Shown piece by piece: positions 43,828 through 50,770 of a stretch of DNA of 55,978 nt. The stretch covers positions 1 to 55,978 of IMG/VR virus record IMGVR_UViG_3300022413_000014. The stretch is one strand, 5' to 3'. The translations under genes were made by a program, and so were the position numbers. The notes beneath the pieces are model-generated. The model saw nothing but the letters and a program-made list of their open reading frames with translations. It was not told the origin of the DNA and ran no database searches. How positions within the stretch are numbered: the stretch's first letter is position 1; every line of letters begins with the position of its first letter. The stretch comes from a virus. Lineage: Duplodnaviria > Caudoviricetes.

Positions 43828-44064
43828 CTAGGGCTCATCAATCCATTCCTGGTATTCACCGCAGCATTCATGGAATGCGGTTATAGGCCAGATCGCCATG
43901 GGATATCGGCCTTCATTGGTCATAAAGGTCTTGCCGTCATGGATGACCGGGGCACGGCGACGGCAAAGCCCGTAGAACGGCCCACCGATCGGCGCTTCGT
44001 TCTGAACGCCTTCGAGTTCGACCTCATGCCAGAATCGGCAGGTGTCGCAGCATTCGCGCTTCAT
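43828..44064 (-). CDS. Small Cys-rich protein
   Basis: CDTCRFW...CRRRAP...WP....CCGEY; ATGA overlap. Confidence 0.6.
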   Translation of the reverse strand: MKRECCDTCRFWHEVELEGVQNEAPIGGPFYGLCRRRAPVIHDGKTFMTNEGRYPMAIWPITAFHECCGEYQEWIDEP

Positions 44065-46520
44065 TCCAGATAATCCTCAGGATCAAGACCGGCGGCCAAA
44101 AACGCGTCCTTCTCCGTCTTGGCCAGCTCGGCAAGCGTAAGCGGTCGCCCGTGGCGGTCAACTAGCCTGCCGATCGATAGATTGCCCCTGCGGAACAGCC
44201 TGGACCGGGTCACGCCCAATAAGTTGCTCTGATCGGAAACGCTCAATCCGTTAAGAAAATCTTCTGACGACGGCACGCCGGGGATGCCGCCGACCTGTTG
44301 CCGGATGCTTTCACGCACGAAGCCATCGAAGCGTGCGCGCTGGCGCGCGGTGAGCTGACCGACCGAGCTGACCGGTTGCATGTTCTCGCGCCGGGTGAAG
44401 TCCCTGAGATAGCGGCGGCGCTCGTCTGACGTCAGTTGTTGCCGCACCAGCGCGGTGTTGGAGATGAACGGCACCCGCCGTGATCGGCAGTTGTGGTGGG
44501 CTGGAGGATATATTCCTTTTCCTGCGTCAAAAATCCTACCATTAAGGTCTAAGCAGATGTGGCTATTATGAGCAACCACCCCGCCGACGATAAAGCTATG
44601 ATCATCGGCTACTTCGATGTCATAGACGACCGCGCCGGCATTGACCGCCTCAACCCCGGCAACGGCAGCGTCATCTGGACATTCGTTCGTTTCGCTTCGG
44701 CCTGCATGTGACAGCGTCGACATCGCGTCGCCAGATTGCTCAACGCGTTCGCCTTCCGTGAATCCGTAAAGTTGTGGAACGGAATGATGTGGTCGACATC
44801 CAACGAACGCCCTGCCTCGGCTTTCTCCTTGGCCTCGGTCTTGCCACAGTCGACGCAAGTGTGGACATCCCGTTTCAAGACGCGCCGCCTGATAGCCTTC
44901 CAGCCGATGCCCCGAGCGCTCGACGTGCGACCGCCGCCTTTCCAGTTCGGATGAGCTTGTCCTGTGAAAGCCTTGCTGATCTTGTCCTTGCGCGCCTGGT
45001 TGTTTGACGTCCATGCACGATTGCATGCTTGCGAGCAGACCTTGCCGCCATTGTGCGCCACCATCGCCATGCCGAATTTGCGTTTGATCGGCTTGACCGG
45101 GGAAAACATGGCTCGGCAATTCACGCAACGGCGTGGCCTTGGCTTTTTGGCCGCCACCCGACAGGCATGCGAACAATATTTCTTCTTGGTTCCACCCGCC
45201 GGCAAGCGCTGCCCACAATGAGCGCATAAACCGCGTTGCTCGATCCGCCATTGATCGTAGCAAGCGCGCGAACAGAAAATCTTGTCTGACGCCCCGCTGA
45301 CCCGTGTCTGACAATGGCCGCGCAGGACTTCCTTGCCGCAGCGATGACACGCATTTCGATGTATGCGACGGCCCGCTGCCTTGCAGGCATTGCCGCAATA
45401 AGTTTGATGTGGATGACCTGAGAAAACGCGAAAGCGTTGACCACATGTCGCGCAGTGGCGATGATCGTTTGGCATGGGCGACTCCTCCAAAGTCATTCAT
45501 GCTCGCGAGGATCATCGTTTGTGCCGATGGTCCTCGCTGCGTTTTGGCAAGGCGGTCACCGTTCCTAAGCGTTCCGGCTTCCTGCCATGAGCCGTCAGGT
45601 CGAAGGAACAGATGATCGCTGGTGCAGGTAAAGCTTTCGCCATTGGCTAGCATCACGCGTACCAGATCATCACTATATTTCGCTTGCGTGGCCCGTACAA
45701 CCCGAGGCGCGCCGCTGCCGCCGATGACCAGGTCTCCAGGTTGTATCGTCTCTATGGGGCGTTTGCCAGTGGGCGTCTCGATCAGCGTGCCGGCAACAAA
45801 ACACGTCCTATCATCGAGCACGGCCGCCCAGATCTCTTTCTTGAACAGCCGCTTATTGGCCTCGGCGAACTCACGTCCGGCAGCGGCGGCGATGTGGGTG
45901 ACCGAAGTGCGCACGATGGTCTGCGCCTGGGCTCGGGTGATCTGGGTCGCGCCGTCACGACCGGCCAGCTCAGCGGTGCCGACGATGCGCGCAGCAATGG
46001 CGTTGACGGTCTCGCCCTGGGTTAGGCCGATGCGGATTTCGTTCATGATGCGGCGGCGCTCGTCCGCTTCAAGCAGCCGCGTCCAGTCCTTGAGGATACG
46101 GCCCTGAAACGGCCTCGACGTCACAATCTTTCTCAGCTCGGATGAGGTCGGCAGCCTGGCCGTAGTGCTGACCGGGGCCGCCATCTTGGTGAGGTTGGCG
46201 AGAAAGCGCGGCTCGTCCAGCGCGATGGCGCTGAGTTCGCCGGTCAGCTCATCCAAGAGACCGCTAAAGGCAGGCGACCTGACCTTCTCGATCGTCTGCT
46301 CCAGGCGGGAAAGGCGCTGGCGTGCCGTCCGGTCTAAAGCGAAGCCACCGCCCGCTGACGACTGCAGCGGCGCGGTCTTGGCGATGATCTGGTCCTTGAG
46401 GTCGCGCTCGGTCCTTTGCAGGTGATTTAGGATCTGGGAGCGCATCCGATTCGACACCCGTACCAGGCCGATCTGACGCCTGATGCTGCTGTCTAGGATG
46501 ATCTCGTTGGCCGTTGGCAT
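44061..46520 (-). CDS. Minor head protein (SPP1 gp7/Mu gpF-like) precursor containing an intein
   Basis: A.TIVRT, W.AVLDDRT|SHIC..LNG...PPAHHNCRS after intein removal; follows portal. Confidence 0.85.
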   Translation of the reverse strand: MPTANEIILDSSIRRQIGLVRVSNRMRSQILNHLQRTERDLKDQIIAKTAPLQSSAGGGFALDRTARQRLSRLEQTIEKVRSPAFSGLLDELTGELSAIALDEPRFLANLTKMAAPVSTTARLPTSSELRKIVTSRPFQGRILKDWTRLLEADERRRIMNEIRIGLTQGETVNAIAARIVGTAELAGRDGATQITRAQAQTIVRTSVTHIAAAAGREFAEANKRLFKKEIWAAVLDDRTCFVAGTLIETPTGKRPIETIQPGDLVIGGSGAPRVVRATQAKYSDDLVRVMLANGESFTCTSDHLFLRPDGSWQEAGTLRNGDRLAKTQRGPSAQTMILASMNDFGGVAHAKRSSPLRDMWSTLSRFLRSSTSNLLRQCLQGSGPSHTSKCVSSLRQGSPARPLSDTGQRGVRQDFLFARLLRSMADRATRFMRSLWAALAGGWNQEEILFACLSGGGQKAKATPLRELPSHVFPGQADQTQIRHGDGGAQWRQGLLASMQSCMDVKQPGAQGQDQQGFHRTSSSELERRRSHVERSGHRLEGYQAARLETGCPHLRRLWQDRGQGESRGRAFVGCRPHHSVPQLYGFTEGERVEQSGDAMSTLSHAGRSETNECPDDAAVAGVEAVNAGAVVYDIEVADDHSFIVGGVVAHNSHICLDLNGRIFDAGKGIYPPAHHNCRSRRVPFISNTALVRQQLTSDERRRYLRDFTRRENMQPVSSVGQLTARQRARFDGFVRESIRQQVGGIPGVPSSEDFLNGLSVSDQSNLLGVTRSRLFRRGNLSIGRLVDRHGRPLTLAELAKTEKDAFLAAGLDPEDYLE
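44565..45803 (-). mobile_element. Intein (413 aa)
   Basis: Block A CFVAGTLI.T, block B TCTSDHLF, block F VYDIEV.DDHSF, terminal VVAHN followed by Ser. Confidence 0.92.
44609..45475 (-). CDS. Zinc-finger HNH endonuclease nested out of frame inside the intein
   Basis: GGAGGAG SD 6 nt before ATG 45475; four CxxC...[YFV]C(S/G)xxC modules; HPNWKGG, RD..TC.DCG, DVDHIIPF...NL.T.CRRCH. Confidence 0.85.
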   Translation of the reverse strand: MPNDHRHCATCGQRFRVFSGHPHQTYCGNACKAAGRRIHRNACHRCGKEVLRGHCQTRVSGASDKIFCSRACYDQWRIEQRGLCAHCGQRLPAGGTKKKYCSHACRVAAKKPRPRRCVNCRAMFSPVKPIKRKFGMAMVAHNGGKVCSQACNRAWTSNNQARKDKISKAFTGQAHPNWKGGGRTSSARGIGWKAIRRRVLKRDVHTCVDCGKTEAKEKAEAGRSLDVDHIIPFHNFTDSRKANALSNLATRCRRCHMQAEAKRTNVQMTLPLPGLRRSMPARSSMTSK

Positions 46521-46529
46521 TGATAGTCA

Positions 46530-48044
46530 TCATTCGCCGTCATTGCTGCGGGAATCGTTTTCGTTTTCGTCACCGGGCTGCTCGAAGGGCTGGCCAAAAC
46601 CGCCATTGGCCGGGGCCATGGATGACATCGCGGCCTTGTCGAGGATATCGGCTGGAATGACGCCCTCTTCCAGTTCAATCTCCTCGATCTCCTCTTCGAG
46701 GGTGCGGCTGGTAACATCACGCTTGAGCATAATCTCGTTGATGGTGCGATAGGAAATGACGCCGCCGCGCTGCTTGAAGGTCAGCATTTCATTCAGCTCG
46801 CTGGCCTCCATCGGATCGTCGGCAAAATCAAGATTGGGCTCGATAAGCACGCCGGCATCATCGACGCCTAGCCAGCGCGCGGCCATGCGCAGCGCTTCCT
46901 GCATGCCGGCGGCCGAGGCCTTGGCGATCGACGTCAGGCTGGCGGTCTGGGCGGCTACACGGATGCGTAGGGCATCACCGGACTCGACCGCAGAGCCACG
47001 CTGCACCAGGCGCGCCGATAGCGCGTTGGCGATCTGGTAGTCCTCGCCGAGGTTGTTGAGCTGGAACTGGATGCCCCGGCTGTCGACGCCGATGAACTTA
47101 GCGTCGCCGCCCTCCTGCATGGCGATGCGCGCGCCGGGGCCGATTTGGATGTCCTCGGTGAGCGTGTTGCCGATGGTGACCAAGGTTTCCTGCCCGGTCA
47201 TGAATAGCGCGTGCCGAAGGTCAGCCTCGCCTAGATAGATCGACATCGAGCGGTTAGCGAGGCCAAGCAGCGGCGGCAGATCGACATTGATGTCGATGTC
47301 GTGGGGGCCGATGAATACGAACGGGATTTCGCCCAAGGTCTGGCCGCGCAGCAGCACCGGCTGGGTTGCGCTGACGTCGAAGGTTTCATCCTCCATGAAC
47401 ATGCCCGAGCTATAGGTGCCGGCGCTCTCGTTCTCAGCGAATTCACCTAGGACCAGGACGCGGTATTTGCGTTCGGTCTTCCATTCCAGCCCGTCGCGGA
47501 CGTTCTCGGTTTCATCCAGCACGACGATGTTGAGGTTTTGCTTGGTGGGATCGCCGGCCTCGCCGTCATCCCAGTTGATTACGCTTTCCGCCGTGTAGGT
47601 CGACAGCAGCGGCAGGATCGACGGGATCTGTACTGGATCTTGCGGAACGTCGACATGAAGCCCCATGCGACCGGTCACTAGCTGTTGCTCGTGGATCTTG
47701 CGCAAGAGATCGACCAGGCTTTCGCCAAGGATGGTCGCCTTGTCCCTAAGCGGTTCCATGGCCTCGGGAAGCTGGATTGACGGCGGCTTGCGGTTGAGGA
47801 TGCCGACCAGAATGTCGACCGTGTCCTTCATCACCTCGGGGAAGACCGCGCGTCGAAGATAGGCTTGATAGCGGCGAAGCCCGTTCTGGCCGGTCAGCAT
47901 GCCTTCAAGATACATGCCTTCGGTCGCGGGGAGATAGGCGAGCCCCTTGGCCTTGACTGCATTCTGGCCGGCATGGCTATCGCGACAAAGCGTCCAAAGG
48001 TCGATGTGGGCCTGATAATCGGGATGCGTGCTGTCGATGGTCAT
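46530..48044 (-). CDS. Portal protein (DUF4055-like)
   Basis: HPDY...W...RD...G...VK.KG..YLP, Y..YL.RA.F, Y.AE.VINW, IPFVF, PPLL.LA. Confidence 0.85.
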   Translation of the reverse strand: MTIDSTHPDYQAHIDLWTLCRDSHAGQNAVKAKGLAYLPATEGMYLEGMLTGQNGLRRYQAYLRRAVFPEVMKDTVDILVGILNRKPPSIQLPEAMEPLRDKATILGESLVDLLRKIHEQQLVTGRMGLHVDVPQDPVQIPSILPLLSTYTAESVINWDDGEAGDPTKQNLNIVVLDETENVRDGLEWKTERKYRVLVLGEFAENESAGTYSSGMFMEDETFDVSATQPVLLRGQTLGEIPFVFIGPHDIDINVDLPPLLGLANRSMSIYLGEADLRHALFMTGQETLVTIGNTLTEDIQIGPGARIAMQEGGDAKFIGVDSRGIQFQLNNLGEDYQIANALSARLVQRGSAVESGDALRIRVAAQTASLTSIAKASAAGMQEALRMAARWLGVDDAGVLIEPNLDFADDPMEASELNEMLTFKQRGGVISYRTINEIMLKRDVTSRTLEEEIEEIELEEGVIPADILDKAAMSSMAPANGGFGQPFEQPGDENENDSRSNDGE

Positions 48045-48163
48045 GGGCGGGCTTGGCTCCGTGGCGACGGCGATCGCCAGAGCCTAGCCAGGCCTGTCAA
48101 GCAGCGTGATGATCGAAGCGAAGTGCTATTGACGTTTGATGATGGTGCCGGCAAGCCTACGCC

Positions 48164-48304
48164 ATGAAACTTGACCGCTATCTAGAGACCTTGCGCCGTA
48201 TGCTGCGCGACCTGTGGGCGACGTCCATGGTCGGCGGCGGCATTGCCATGATTGTGCTGATCGCTGGCGCGCTCCTCATCGCTTGGGCGCTCAATGCGGG
48301 TTAA
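48164..48304 (+). CDS. 46-aa single-TM protein
   Basis: Manual translation MKLDRYLETLRR...GIAMIVLIAGALLIAWALNAG. Confidence 0.4.
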   Translation: MKLDRYLETLRRMLRDLWATSMVGGGIAMIVLIAGALLIAWALNAG

Positions 48305-48398
48305 AAGCTGGATATTCTGGCTGGCAGTTCTGGTCAGCGGACTTGGCGGCGGTGTCGCCGCCGGCGTGGCCATCATCATCTTGAGGGACGGGCTTTAA
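48294..48398 (+). CDS. 34-aa hydrophobic protein
   Basis: MRVKSWIFWLAVLVSGLGGGVAAGVAIIILRDGL; TAATG coupling to next gene. Confidence 0.4.
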   Translation: MRVKSWIFWLAVLVSGLGGGVAAGVAIIILRDGL

Positions 48399-48673
48399 TG
48401 ATCAAGACGGCGGACATCCCTATCGGTCGGCGCTGGCATGACACCGAGTCCGACCAGGTAAAGGTATGGGACGGCGAAGCCTGGCAACTCGACTACCGTG
48501 AGCTTTTAAAGCGCTACATGGCCAACGTCGAGGCGCGCGAAGGCGTGTATTTCATCGAGCCTGGATGGGATGAAAACCCGGATTACGATGTGACCCCTTA
48601 TCCCGGTCTGTCGGACGCCGACCAGATCGAACTCGGCAAGATCGCGAGCGAGATCAGCTATTATGACGGATGA
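48398..48673 (+). CDS. Hypothetical protein (paralog of 39937..40245)
   Basis: DYRELLKRY...EGVY...YPGLSD. Confidence 0.6.
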   Translation: MIKTADIPIGRRWHDTESDQVKVWDGEAWQLDYRELLKRYMANVEAREGVYFIEPGWDENPDYDVTPYPGLSDADQIELGKIASEISYYDG

Positions 48674-48914
48674 GTCATTCCGGAGTATTGTGATGAACAA
48701 GAACCACGCGACCGGCGCTGAAGTCGATGCGCTTTTGGCTGCGATGCCGGATCGCTGCATCGTCTGGCTAAGCGTCGACTCCGAAAGCTATTTCGTTAGG
48801 GCTGTTGGGACCAGGCCTCATGAACAGCCTGATATGCTCGCCTTCAAAAGATCACGTTCAGGCATCGATCAGGCCGTTGCGTTGGCGCGCATGGCCGCTG
48901 CCGAGCAGTCCTGA
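48663..48914 (+). CDS. Hypothetical protein
   Basis: Overlap-coupled ORF. Confidence 0.5.
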   Translation: MTDESFRSIVMNKNHATGAEVDALLAAMPDRCIVWLSVDSESYFVRAVGTRPHEQPDMLAFKRSRSGIDQAVALARMAAAEQS

Positions 48915-49180
48915 TGCCGCTTATTCGTGTTCTTGAGATCCCGCCGCCGACTGGGACATATCATTTCCGTAGCGGCGAGCCCCAGACCTTCATCGAGGTC
49001 GATTGGTTCCGTGATGATGATTACATCGAGGGCCACCCGGACGCGCCGGTGATGACCACCGAGCGCGGTCGCGAACTGATCATCGCGTTCATTAAGCAGA
49101 AGCGCTATTTCAAGCCCGGCAAGGCGTTTCTGGTGCTGCACCAGGACTACAGCATGACCATCGGCTATAGCGCGCCTTAA
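48914..49180 (+). CDS. Hypothetical protein
   Basis: TGATG coupling. Confidence 0.55.
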   Translation: MPLIRVLEIPPPTGTYHFRSGEPQTFIEVDWFRDDDYIEGHPDAPVMTTERGRELIIAFIKQKRYFKPGKAFLVLHQDYSMTIGYSAP

Positions 49181-49482
49181 TAGGGCGTGACGCAGGCGTG
49201 CGCTAGACAGGCGTAATCGGTGGTCCAGTAGCCGACGACGGTACGCCCGTCCGCTAGCTCACCACGACCATAAACCAGCTCGGCATGCTCATATTCTGGA
49301 GGCGTCAGCAGGTCATCGGCATCGCCGGCTGTCACCGTCTCCAGCGAGCGGCAGATTTCCAGCACGATGATACGGCTTTCGGGGGGCAGCAAGCTGCAAA
49401 ACCCGATGATGGTGCCGCGCTGGCGATCTCTGACGGGAATTCCCGGATCGCCTTGGGGAAGGCTTTGGTCCAGGGAAGACAT
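49177..49482 (-). CDS. Hypothetical protein
   Basis: ATG 49482 after AAGGA. Confidence 0.45.
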   Translation of the reverse strand: MSSLDQSLPQGDPGIPVRDRQRGTIIGFCSLLPPESRIIVLEICRSLETVTAGDADDLLTPPEYEHAELVYGRGELADGRTVVGYWTTDYACLAHACVTPY

Positions 49483-49579
49483 GGCTAGGTTCCTTGTCGA
49501 GACGGGCGCGGTGGAAGGATTGAGCCCGCGCCCGTCTCTAGGAGAACATCGGGGCAATCTTATTCATTTCAAATGAAAA

Positions 49580-50048
49580 AAGCAAAAAAGGGCGGTGGCT
49601 TGTCATTTGCCCGAAGGCAGGGGAGAACAAGACACCGCCGAAATCGATTGACCTTGTATAGGTCAAAGCCCATGCCAGCTGCGAGGTCCGTCACAGGAAT
49701 GCAACTGACAATAGGTAATTTAGGGCTATTGACGGTGAATGACTAGGGGGGCTAGCTGTCTGTGGGGAAGGCGGGCCGATGACCGTATGTTGTGATGGCA
49801 TTCCCATCGAGCCACCGTACGGGATTCTTCATCACTGGGTAGCAGTGGTCATCGGCCCCACCATCGGTCTGCGTCTGGCTGGCGAGACAGACCGTTCATG
49901 AAACCATCATCAACAATTATCAACGGTTATTTTCCATCCGACGGAAAAGGGGGCCGACTGGTGCCGGCCCCCTCCCCTTCGTACATTGCGGGATTTCACG
50001 ACGGGTTTTCTGATCGCCTCCTTTCGCTAGCTCTCACCACTAATCGAG
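49580..50048 (-). ncRNA. Candidate structured non-coding RNA
   Basis: No ORF of 60 aa or more; consecutive hairpins; upstream TTGACA-N17-CATGAT; ends in GC hairpin plus U-tract. Confidence 0.45.
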
Positions 50049-50054
50049 ACCGTG

Positions 50055-50083
50055 ATCATGATCTGTGCTGACAACGTTGTCAA
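50055..50083 (-). promoter_or_regulatory. Sigma70-like promoter overlapped by operator
   Basis: TTGACA(50083-50078)-N17-CATGAT(50060-50055); palindrome TGACAACGTTGTCA. Confidence 0.65.
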
Positions 50084-50367
50084 GTATCAGCATCGGTGAT
50101 CACGAATACATCCTCGACGCCGATGCGCATCAGCCGGAGATACCCGGTCTTGATCTCGACCGAGAGCATGTGCCCGCGCGGCACCTCGATATATCCGTTG
50201 CTCTGTGCGTCGCACACGAGCCACATGCGATCATAGCCGTGGTGACTTTCGGCAAAATAACAGTCACCAGGAAGCAGGACGCGCGTGTTGACCTTGACGA
50301 TGTCAAGCCCGGCCGGCATCTCGCCGTCGCCACGTAGGGCTGCCCATAGCTTCCTGATGACCGTCAT
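50080..50367 (-). CDS. Hypothetical protein
   Basis: GAGGAG SD. Confidence 0.5.
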   Translation of the reverse strand: MTVIRKLWAALRGDGEMPAGLDIVKVNTRVLLPGDCYFAESHHGYDRMWLVCDAQSNGYIEVPRGHMLSVEIKTGYLRLMRIGVEDVFVITDADT

Positions 50368-50372
50368 GATGA

Positions 50373-50759
50373 TTACTCCTCGAAAACGTATCCGCGATCT
50401 TCCAGCCACTTCCTTTGCGACGGGGTCAGATCGATATAGCCGTTAGCACCTGGCGTCATAAGGCGCTTGGCGTCTTCGTGTTGCCATCTTTCTATCTTGG
50501 CCCCCACGGTCTCAACCTGGTATTCCTTGGCCGTGACATCTCCGAAGCGCTCGCGGGCTACCGCGTACCATGCGCGCTGCTCTGGCGTCAGATCCTCATG
50601 TCCTGGCAACGGCACCCACATCTCGCTGACGCCATCGAAGTGGTGGGTGCAGCTGATCAGCGCTTCCATGGCGTCGGTCTGCTCCTTCGATCCGGTGACC
50701 TTCATGGCATCGCCATCGCCGACCAGATCGATCCACATCTCGTAGTTCTGCATTGCCAT
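50373..50759 (-). CDS. Hypothetical protein
   Basis: AAGGAG SD. Confidence 0.65.
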   Translation of the reverse strand: MAMQNYEMWIDLVGDGDAMKVTGSKEQTDAMEALISCTHHFDGVSEMWVPLPGHEDLTPEQRAWYAVARERFGDVTAKEYQVETVGAKIERWQHEDAKRLMTPGANGYIDLTPSQRKWLEDRGYVFEE

Positions 50760-50770
50760 TGTGCTCTCCT

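Follow-up and report, generated by a model that had tools for sequence, protein, structure and literature searches.

Can one stretch of phage DNA encode a protein-splicing intein in one reading frame and, in another, the nuclease that would make that intein mobile? This question is raised by the gene for a MuF-like head morphogenesis protein (gpF) in IMG/VR virus record IMGVR_UViG_3300022413_000014, a metagenome-assembled sequence of 55,978 bp with 59% G+C and a completeness estimate of 69%, which we analyzed at its full length and refer to as the window. Inteins are usually taught as single in-frame proteins. In our reading, the gpF gene is likely to carry a mobile class-1 intein and, inside it, a homing nuclease that is encoded separately, the two genes sharing the same DNA in different phases.

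The gpF gene is an 819-codon open reading frame (ORF) that matches the PHROG head morphogenesis family (phrog_241, 1.6e-82) and follows a portal gene (46530-48044, minus strand; phrog_145, 2e-98). Its ends match MuF-like head morphogenesis proteins, and its middle matches intein splicing domains. Pfam searches returned Intein_splicing (4.6e-9) and Hint_2 (4.7e-9), both above their cut-offs, as well as Phage_Mu_F (4.7e-5), which at 24.5 bits stays below its cut-off of 29.6, a shortfall explained by the intein's position inside the domain (at profile position 78 of 112). The intein runs from Cys to His-Asn with Ser directly after it, and it splits a conserved MuF motif between LDDRT and SHIC, where intein-less homologues read LDNRT-SQIC (locus L004) and LDGRV-TLTC (L003). 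The class-1 splicing residues are all present (C1, T61 and H64 of the TxxH motif in block B, D401-H402 in block F, H412-N413, and Ser at +1) and all invariant in a three-sequence alignment, A3. The parts of the host gene are these:

44061 to 46520, minus strand: MuF-like head morphogenesis gene (gpF) coding for the 819-aa precursor, identified with Pfam and PHROG, directly downstream of the portal gene.
45804 to 46520, minus strand: N-extein, 239 aa, ending in LDDRT; aligns with the intein-less homologues L003 and L004.
44565 to 45803, minus strand: class-1 intein, 413 aa and 1239 bp (host residues 240-652), identified by Pfam, motif residues, fold, and its exact absence in contigs of runs X2 and X3.
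45534 to 45803, minus strand: N-terminal Hint region, intein residues 1-90.
44679 to 45533, minus strand: host-frame filler, intein residues 91-375, without a stop.
44565 to 44678, minus strand: C-terminal Hint region, intein residues 376-413, with blocks F and G.
44061 to 44564, minus strand: C-extein, 167 aa plus stop, beginning SHIC, from translation and alignment.

When the host frame was modelled with AlphaFold2, block means of the per-residue confidence (pLDDT) were 79-90 across the N-terminal Hint region (intein residues 1-90), about 80 across the C-terminal one (376-413), and 22-34 in between (91-375). Foldseek matched the intein model to the mini-inteins MchDnaB-1, gp41-1, and Mtu RecA (probability 1.0, target TM-score about 0.6). 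In these models the Hint fold is formed only by residues 1-90 and 376-413, and residues 91-375 constitute a non-folding filler, which is rich in Ser (11.6%), Gly (11.2%), and Arg (11.2%) and has no Pfam match.

The same DNA also reads as a gene in the phase one base downstream of the host phase (+1). An ORF at 44609-45496 on the minus strand codes for 295 aa from its first ATG and for 288 aa from the ATG at 45475, which has the Shine-Dalgarno sequence GGAGGAG 6 nt upstream. It matches the Pfam HNH profile (1.6e-8; 35 bits against a cut-off of 21.4) and the PHROG HNH family phrog_1271 (8.9e-24), its translation contains four CxxC...CxxxC modules in addition to the CxxC...CxxC of the HNH domain, and its stop codon, TAG at 44609-44611, falls within intein block F. 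By sequence and profile match the nested gene is an HNH (His-Me finger) endonuclease of zinc-ribbon type, its activity being predicted. Its parts, and the one place where it meets a folded part of the host protein, are as follows:

44609 to 45475, minus strand: +1-phase zinc-ribbon HNH endonuclease gene, 288 aa, stop included, identified by ORF, Pfam, PHROG, and fold.
45023 to 45454, minus strand: four zinc-ribbon modules (CxxC...CxxxC), nuclease residues 8-151, which presumably bind DNA.
44690 to 44881, minus strand: HNH catalytic domain, residues about 199-262 (C207, C210, H229, N243, N247, C252, C255, H256).
44609 to 44678, minus strand: sole overlap of a folded host part (C-terminal Hint) with the nuclease ORF, here its low-confidence tail.

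The model of the nuclease frame has a mean pLDDT of 83.1, with low confidence only at residues 178-186 and in the tail, residues 267-288, and its best Foldseek match is the HNH protein of phage GVE2 (5h0m), at a probability of 1.00 and a whole-model E-value of only 6.6e-3. The confident parts of the nuclease fold and of the Hint fold meet at base 44678, the one ending and the other resuming exactly there, and therefore almost no stretch encodes two folded parts together. All 18 invariant columns of a 23-sequence family alignment are kept in the window nuclease, including the catalytic His and Asn and the zinc cysteines (the eight residues named for the HNH domain above are conserved across the 23), and its N-terminus agrees in this alignment with that of stand-alone relatives. 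Much of this had been proposed in an initial annotation made from the sequence alone, which described a 413-aa intein splitting LDDRT-SHIC, an intein frame that stays open and Arg/Ser/Gly-rich with no recognizable nuclease, and a 288-aa +1 protein with GGAGGAG, four zinc modules, HNH domain, and a stop in block F. Each of these points is borne out, the first also by intein-less homologues and a 1239-bp length difference described below, and profile searches of both frames place the splicing domains in the host frame and HNH in the +1 frame.

How likely is it that the host frame stays open across this gene by chance? With 57 of its 289 codons ending in T and 59 beginning with AA, AG, or GA, the nuclease gene would be expected to produce about 11.6 stops in the host frame. 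None is seen, against 10.6-12.8 expected by the different estimates: synonymous-codon shuffling gave a mean of 10.6 and codon-order shuffling one of 11.7, and 0 of 20,000 shuffles of either kind reached zero stops. The third frame holds 6 stops against 4.6 expected. At the level of single codons, none of the 59 nuclease codons that precede AA, AG, or GA ends in T, with C commonest at that position (31/59). For comparison, 13 other long ORFs from the window, read in the same offset frame, contain 4.4 stops per 100 codons and stay open for at most 100 codons in a row; at this rate a stretch of 289 codons free of stops has a Poisson probability of 2.7e-6. Chance does not account for the open host frame, which is under selection for read-through. 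In the +1 phase a host stop consists of the final T of a nuclease codon followed by AA, AG, or GA, and since a change from NNT to NNC is always silent, any of these stops (T-AA, T-AG, or T-GA) can be removed without changing the nuclease. If the standard genetic code is the reason for the choice of phase, then +1 would be used since only there is every host-frame stop silently erasable.

The second open frame bears directly on the possibility that two compensating indels, introduced in sequencing or assembly, hide a canonical intein with an in-frame HNH domain. The window is a metagenome-assembled record and in-frame HNH inteins are described in actinobacteriophages (10.1101/2025.01.02.630785), but an in-frame nuclease gives no reason for a second stop-free frame, and two compensating errors are therefore unlikely. 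The nuclease gene comes with a Shine-Dalgarno sequence, an ATG, and a stop of its own, and the N-terminus that it encodes resembles that of homologues; the filler frame is common to five independent protein records; and the same phase recurs in 23 other loci and in cultured phages annotated with two overlapping coding sequences (CDS). No in-frame fused form of the window nuclease was found among 813 longer candidates, a result that weighs lightly. Reads with compensating indels had been named at the outset as an observation that would overturn the proposal, and we looked for them: Logan contigs of run X1 and a 151-nt contig of run X5 are identical to the window and contain no indels, this contig support applying outside 44849-45153, where the runs compared gave no contig cover. 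We consider such an artefact very improbable.

It is similarly hard to credit that a double programmed frameshift joins the N-terminal Hint region to the nuclease and then returns to the host frame, making the nuclease an in-frame domain of the protein. Both ORFs do lie on one mRNA, and a stable hairpin sits shortly before the nuclease start. Such a mechanism, however, calls for two precise shifts, the hairpin is upstream rather than downstream of any plausible shift site, and the nuclease has initiation signals of its own and an N-terminus that aligns with stand-alone homologues; no slippery heptamer was seen in the sequence, which for this was read by eye only.

That the intein comes and goes as a unit is visible in a close relative. 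Runs X2 and X3, from a different study, contain contigs of 19.4-19.6 kb with flanks about 94-96% identical to the window, which join position 44509 to position 45811 with 62 letters between them. The net loss is exactly 1239 bp, the length of the intein, and therefore a close relative has an intein-less gpF allele: the element shows presence/absence polymorphism. Around the junction of these contigs, 44510-44564 (the 55 nt after the insertion point) and 45804-45810 (the 7 nt before it) are unaligned at 85% identity, and the differences crowd toward the C-extein side. This unaligned, divergent flank may be a co-conversion tract.

The arrangement recurs well beyond the window. A profile of three nested-candidate precursors found 80 viral loci, 27 of them with an HNH-family match, and at every one of the 23 same-strand loci checked the host frame runs without a stop across the entire nuclease ORF, with the nuclease in +1; this count leaves out L236 and L238, apparent duplicates of L235, and the opposite-strand L198 and L199. 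The host of these 23 loci (within L178-L247; for example L189, 1612-2635) is an intein-bearing terminase large subunit, as identified by Pfam on four host ORFs, and 6 of 6 nested terminase ORFs tested score above the Pfam HNH cut-off. Across 14 unique terminase loci there are 0 host-frame stops, as against 5.8-13.7 expected in each and 136.6 in sum, and the third frame holds 6-16. One of these terminase genes (L179) contains a second intein, with an in-frame LAGLIDADG domain.

These terminase relatives also allow selection to be assigned to a frame. Between L200 and L209, differences at host codon positions 1, 2, and 3 number 10, 3, and 17 in the N-terminal Hint region and 79, 32, and 17 in the filler; the position pattern flips in the filler, and selection there therefore follows the nuclease frame. 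Only 1 of 78 pairs in a host-frame codon alignment exceeded 62% identity in the filler, so we realigned the sequences in the nuclease frame, where the position order is 3 > 1 > 2 in 71 of 91 pairs, with totals of 6921, 6283, and 9848 for positions 1, 2, and 3. In a FastTree phylogeny (midpoint rooting, local supports), 19 terminase-nested nucleases form one clade (support 1.0) and the window nuclease falls inside a separate gpF-associated clade of stand-alone and split-locus genes (0.93), so that +1 nesting appears in two nuclease clades; the IQ-TREE nuclease tree was too poorly resolved to group the window nuclease with either its free-standing or its split-locus relatives. With a terminase-nested nuclease as query, tblastn returned 45 phage records, of which 41 are from Brucella, 2 from Gordonia phage Clown, and 1 each from Ralstonia and Synechococcus, and the terminase intein of Clown contains a four-zinc-ribbon HNH ORF in the +1 phase.

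What do relatives at the same gpF site look like? The closest relatives of the nuclease for which DNA is at hand are in L003 (40% identity over the aligned stretch) and L004 (47%). At both loci (L003:2658-4810; L004:2324-4274) a free-standing nuclease gene with C-terminal helix-turn-helix repeats lies directly downstream of an intein-less gpF gene, in the order portal-gpF-nuclease-scaffold. Among the 83 loci L001-L083 a gpF gene beside a nuclease gene was found only in these two, besides the window's own L002, and the gpF-nuclease neighborhood is therefore limited to the nearest subfamily. The 22 nuclease relatives from protein databases are separately called genes, most with 1-3 C-terminal helix-turn-helix repeats. 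In a 454-aa gpF (P0074) the same insertion site is occupied by a mini-intein of about 130 aa that contains no nuclease, and five further gpF precursors (P0001, P0002, P0033, P0035, and P0036) have filler that aligns with the window's along its full length. As an indirect, protein-level measure, host-frame identity in this gpF-group filler is 31-33%, with 62-64% of positions +1-compatible and 42-48% +2-compatible, and in the exteins 39-56% of positions are +1-compatible. The position of the nuclease gene in L003 and L004 is the one expected of a nuclease gene that targets its neighbor.

In two further loci, L168 (2597-5380) and L169 (3551-5663), the gpF gene is fractured into an ORF for its N-part and N-intein, a nuclease gene, and an ORF for the C-intein and C-part. 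Their nucleases (298 or 292 aa) are zinc-ribbon HNH enzymes of the window's family, and the 3' end of the nuclease gene reaches 17 nt into the following ORF in L168 and up to 79 nt in L169. Such loci suggest that the window intein, too, could be functionally split, with host-frame translation usually ending in the filler, for example at the hairpin that stands at the end of the N-terminal Hint region, the halves splicing in trans, and the open frame being incidental. About 30 of the best 150 profile hits are in line with this, being proteins of 300-360 aa that end just past the N-intein and resemble a gpF N-part with its N-intein (5 of 5 inspected are gpF N-halves). The fractured loci, however, have stops across the nuclease gene in the intein frames (14 in L168, 6 or 14 in L169), whereas the window has 0 against about 11-13 expected, which speaks for selection for read-through, and no host-frame start codon precedes its C-terminal Hint region. 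We regard a functional split in the window as improbable. In both fractured loci the nuclease sits in the other phase relative to the N-intein, which for only two loci is a hint in favor of the phase argument given above. L168 and L169 are HNH-type fractured genes, a form that the available text of the fractured-gene paper predicted but did not observe (PMC2677866).

Of the further proposals in the initial annotation, the core one of a dual-coding element, whose host frame must remain stop-free while the nuclease is a separate gene, is supported by stop avoidance, the folds, the invariant residues, the exact intein-less allele, and the 23 terminase loci, with independent translation of the nuclease, splicing, and cleavage being the conditional parts. 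Its suggested comparison with intein-less gpF alleles found them in X2/X3, L003, and L004, and its suggested comparison of selection per frame showed the nuclease frame to be constrained in the terminase relatives, with the gpF group yielding only indirect compatibility at the protein level.

How might the nested gene be expressed? Two hairpins are predicted in the mRNA around its start:

45505 to 45537, minus strand: 13-bp hairpin 17 nt upstream of the nuclease Shine-Dalgarno sequence, within the host coding frame (predicted fold).
45472 to 45502, minus strand: smaller predicted hairpin pairing part of the Shine-Dalgarno sequence (45482-45488) and the ATG (45473-45475) (weak).

The 106-nt fold with the 13-bp hairpin has a predicted stability of -39.7 kcal/mol (z -4.09), with 0 of 200 shuffles equally stable; the small hairpin alone reaches a weak -11.6 kcal/mol (z -1.98), with 9 of 200 equally stable. 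In L169, L003, and L004 the nuclease gene likewise has a stable hairpin ahead of it, and in AT-rich L168 it does not. Hairpins of nuclease genes in fractured genes have been likened to the translation-attenuating one of the nuclease gene in phage Aeh1 nrdA (PMC2677866).

If the gpF gene carries a mobile intein with a nuclease of its own, the parts could work together as follows. Ribosomes in the host phase would make the 819-aa precursor, in which the 285-residue tether needs only to be free of stop codons, and splicing would give a 406-aa gpF with LDDRT-SHIC restored. In the +1 phase, the nuclease would be made by internal initiation at its own Shine-Dalgarno sequence and ATG, perhaps gated by the hairpin over the ribosome-binding site, which host-frame ribosomes would open. 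The nuclease would then cut or nick intein-less gpF alleles of co-infecting phages, and repair would copy the whole 1239-bp unit. As for its origin, we infer that the whole nuclease cassette of hairpin, ribosome-binding site, and ORF may have entered a mini-intein.

A number of observations count against such an active element. The window nuclease lacks the C-terminal helix-turn-helix repeats present in most of its stand-alone relatives, and its branch is long (1.61; median 0.91), possibly a sign of relaxed constraint. The predicted hairpin over the ribosome-binding site, weakly supported as it is, could equally silence the nuclease gene; a scan for consensus sequences only found no sigma-70-like promoter upstream on the nuclease strand; and there is no RNA run among the sequencing runs that contain this stretch. 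Run X1, whose contigs are 100% identical to the window, is probably the source sample, and the sole independent support for the nested sequence itself is the 151-nt contig of X5. Frame-specific selection was measured directly only in the terminase relatives, whose nucleases are about 24-27% identical to that of the window, and the protein-level test in which the +1 phase of the five gpF precursors fits the window nuclease, with scores of 326-654 against about 60 for shuffled sequences, is itself tied to host-frame similarity. The uniform +1 phase may, moreover, be due in part to shared ancestry rather than to the genetic code.

Several of these points would fit a relic, in which the intein splices and the nested HNH gene is unexpressed or inactive, leaving what is effectively a vertically inherited mini-intein with a long spacer. 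The long terminal branch, the missing repeats, the possibly paired ribosome-binding site, and the lack of a promoter-like site are all as such a relic would have them, and decay of this kind is predicted by homing-cycle theory as given in two preprints (10.1101/2025.01.02.630785; 10.64898/2026.09.14.751524). A dead +1 ORF would, however, gather stops, as the third frame with its 6 does, whereas the nuclease ORF is intact over 288 codons, keeps every invariant column, and is confidently folded in the model. An intein-less allele in a phage 94-96% identical also speaks against a relic, and the nuclease phase is under purifying selection in the terminase relatives. The split-locus nucleases of L168 and L169 are likewise without helix-turn-helix repeats. 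A relic is unlikely on this evidence, and we continue to favor a mobile intein with a separately encoded nuclease.

Taken together, the gpF and terminase loci permit a broader interpretation, which we offer tentatively and as possible rather than probable. Out-of-frame nesting may be neither a rare accident nor a short-lived transition but a stable, selected state that is widespread among the terminase and MuF genes of phages, is tied to the +1 phase by silent NNT-to-NNC changes, and has arisen in at least two nuclease clades. The gpF site would in that case keep every stage of gene breaking, and translation of the nuclease may be coupled to that of the host. As far as the sequences can tell, the empty site with a neighboring nuclease, the mini-intein, the fractured gene, and the contiguous out-of-frame form are all present at the gpF site.

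Precedents for the arrangement exist, as the initial annotation had rightly suspected when it allowed for rare ones. In actinobacteriophages, "non-canonical" inteins have been described in which the nuclease lies within the intein and outside the host frame, and the authors propose that a free-standing nuclease gene invaded the intein (10.1101/2025.01.02.630785). Their host genes include those for minor capsid (MuF-type) proteins and terminases, but in the main text of that preprint HNH domains occur in frame only, out-of-frame nucleases are "endonuclease VII-like, frame 3", and the minor-capsid inteins carry an antisense LAGLIDADG gene, unlike the +1 HNH gene of the window (10.1101/2025.01.02.630785). 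The terminase intein of Gordonia phage Clown, for which the same preprint cites a size (10.1101/2025.01.02.630785), has a +1 four-zinc-ribbon HNH ORF like the window's.

Brucellaphage terminase inteins with an out-of-frame HNH gene have been in print since 2015 (PMC4422536), and in GenBank record NC_019447 (Brucella phage Pr) the terminase gp07 ("intein present") is annotated with an overlapping HNH CDS, gp08, for which (3170-2347) mod 3 = 1; the GenBank note labels this HNH gene "intron-encoded". No test of dual coding was found in the available text of the brucellaphage paper (PMC4422536). The brucellaphage and window elements are alike in having a class-1 intein in a phage structural or packaging gene, an open host frame, and a zinc-ribbon HNH gene in +1. 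They differ in host, which is MuF in the window and terminase in the brucellaphages, and in the nuclease itself, which in the brucellaphages belongs to the 19-member terminase-nested clade and in the window to a different one. In a tblastn search of a phage collection the window nuclease had no match in brucellaphages at an E-value of 1e-5.

An out-of-frame case in a cellular gene, the cyanobacterial dnaX intein, reportedly goes back to Gorbalenya 1998. Like the window intein, it has an overlapping ORF within a contiguous intein; its nuclease frame is described as under purifying selection and its host frame as relaxed, and the authors propose secondary invasion of a mini-intein (10.64898/2026.09.14.751524). 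The dnaX nuclease is a LAGLIDADG enzyme in a cellular gene, whereas that of the window is an HNH enzyme in a phage gene, and an ancestral free-standing nuclease was not found by the dnaX authors, whereas here stand-alone relatives adjoin the same target gene (10.64898/2026.09.14.751524). Fractured genes resemble the window element in that the intein contains a nuclease cassette that is preceded by a hairpin, has a start of its own, and overlaps C-intein coding sequence at its 3' end (PMC2677866). The nucleases in the available text of that paper are GIY-YIG and Vsr-like, with HNH predicted and not observed (PMC2677866), and unlike in fractured genes, with their split host ORFs, the host frame of the window is continuous. 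Finally, the ShiLan domain of a phage methylase also hides an HNH ORF in another phase of a stop-free insertion, but it has no splicing domains, so that the insertion stays in the protein, and it has a GTG start with no detectable ribosome-binding site, where the window has a complete intein and a strong Shine-Dalgarno sequence (PMC11855218).

The arrangement as such is thus already in print, and what is new here is a MuF head gene as its host: no report of a nested HNH gene in a MuF-gene intein was found in the full-text literature searched, which did not cover the supplementary intein tables of the 2025 preprint. The gpF site adds free-standing, split, mini, and contiguous states at a single insertion site, together with family-wide stop avoidance in a single phase, and these several configurations make a route testable in which a free-standing nuclease invades a mini-intein and gives rise to a split or a contiguous element. 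Out-of-frame nucleases are termed a rarity in recent preprints, and yet 23 terminase loci, always in one phase, came out of one scan, which makes the arrangement common in viral metagenomes. Gene callers overlook such nested nucleases, and intein surveys would score inteins of this kind as nuclease-less or degraded. If the window intein does splice, then a Hint domain that tolerates an unfolded tether of 285 residues would also be of interest to intein engineers.

Further searches define how far the window's own version extends. A search of genome_contigs with the nested gene found one distant locus, and tblastn against the phage collection found only stand-alone HNH genes, at less than 46% identity. 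The 819-aa protein had no match in viral_contigs. With the intein profile A3 the only matches were to N-terminal Hint regions of inteins in other host genes, at 47 loci in viral_contigs and 37 in metagenome_contigs; gpF exteins were present at 0 of these 84 A3-matched loci, a count from which L108, L120, and L160 (weak match to residues 1-413) are left out. Upstream of the portal gene, 48045-50770 contains only small ORFs on both strands, none of which reaches 150 aa, and nothing that resembles a terminase gene. A 17-nt inverted repeat at 44428-44444 and 45791-45807, which is 82% complementary, is taken as chance.

Some minor observations concern the intein and its more distant relatives. At third codon positions the N-extein has a G+C fraction of 0.82, compared with 0.69 for the C-extein, 0.59 for the N-terminal part of the intein, and 0.66 for the nuclease gene; the intein differs in composition from the upstream part of its host gene. 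P0006 (1139 aa, a portal-MuF fusion) and P0083 (724 aa, MuF-like) have an intein at the homologous site with about 290 filler-like residues; as carriers of the window nuclease they were set aside, having no clear +1 match, and they may hide a different nested gene. On a metagenome contig (L143) an HNH relative (69-344) lies about 1.6 kb upstream of an intein N-domain match (1958-2095). In L198 and L199 (about 2278-2553), a gpF-like gene has an intein inserted between GDERT and C whose interior matches the zinc-ribbon part of the nuclease on the opposite strand, and these loci may represent an antisense-nested variant.

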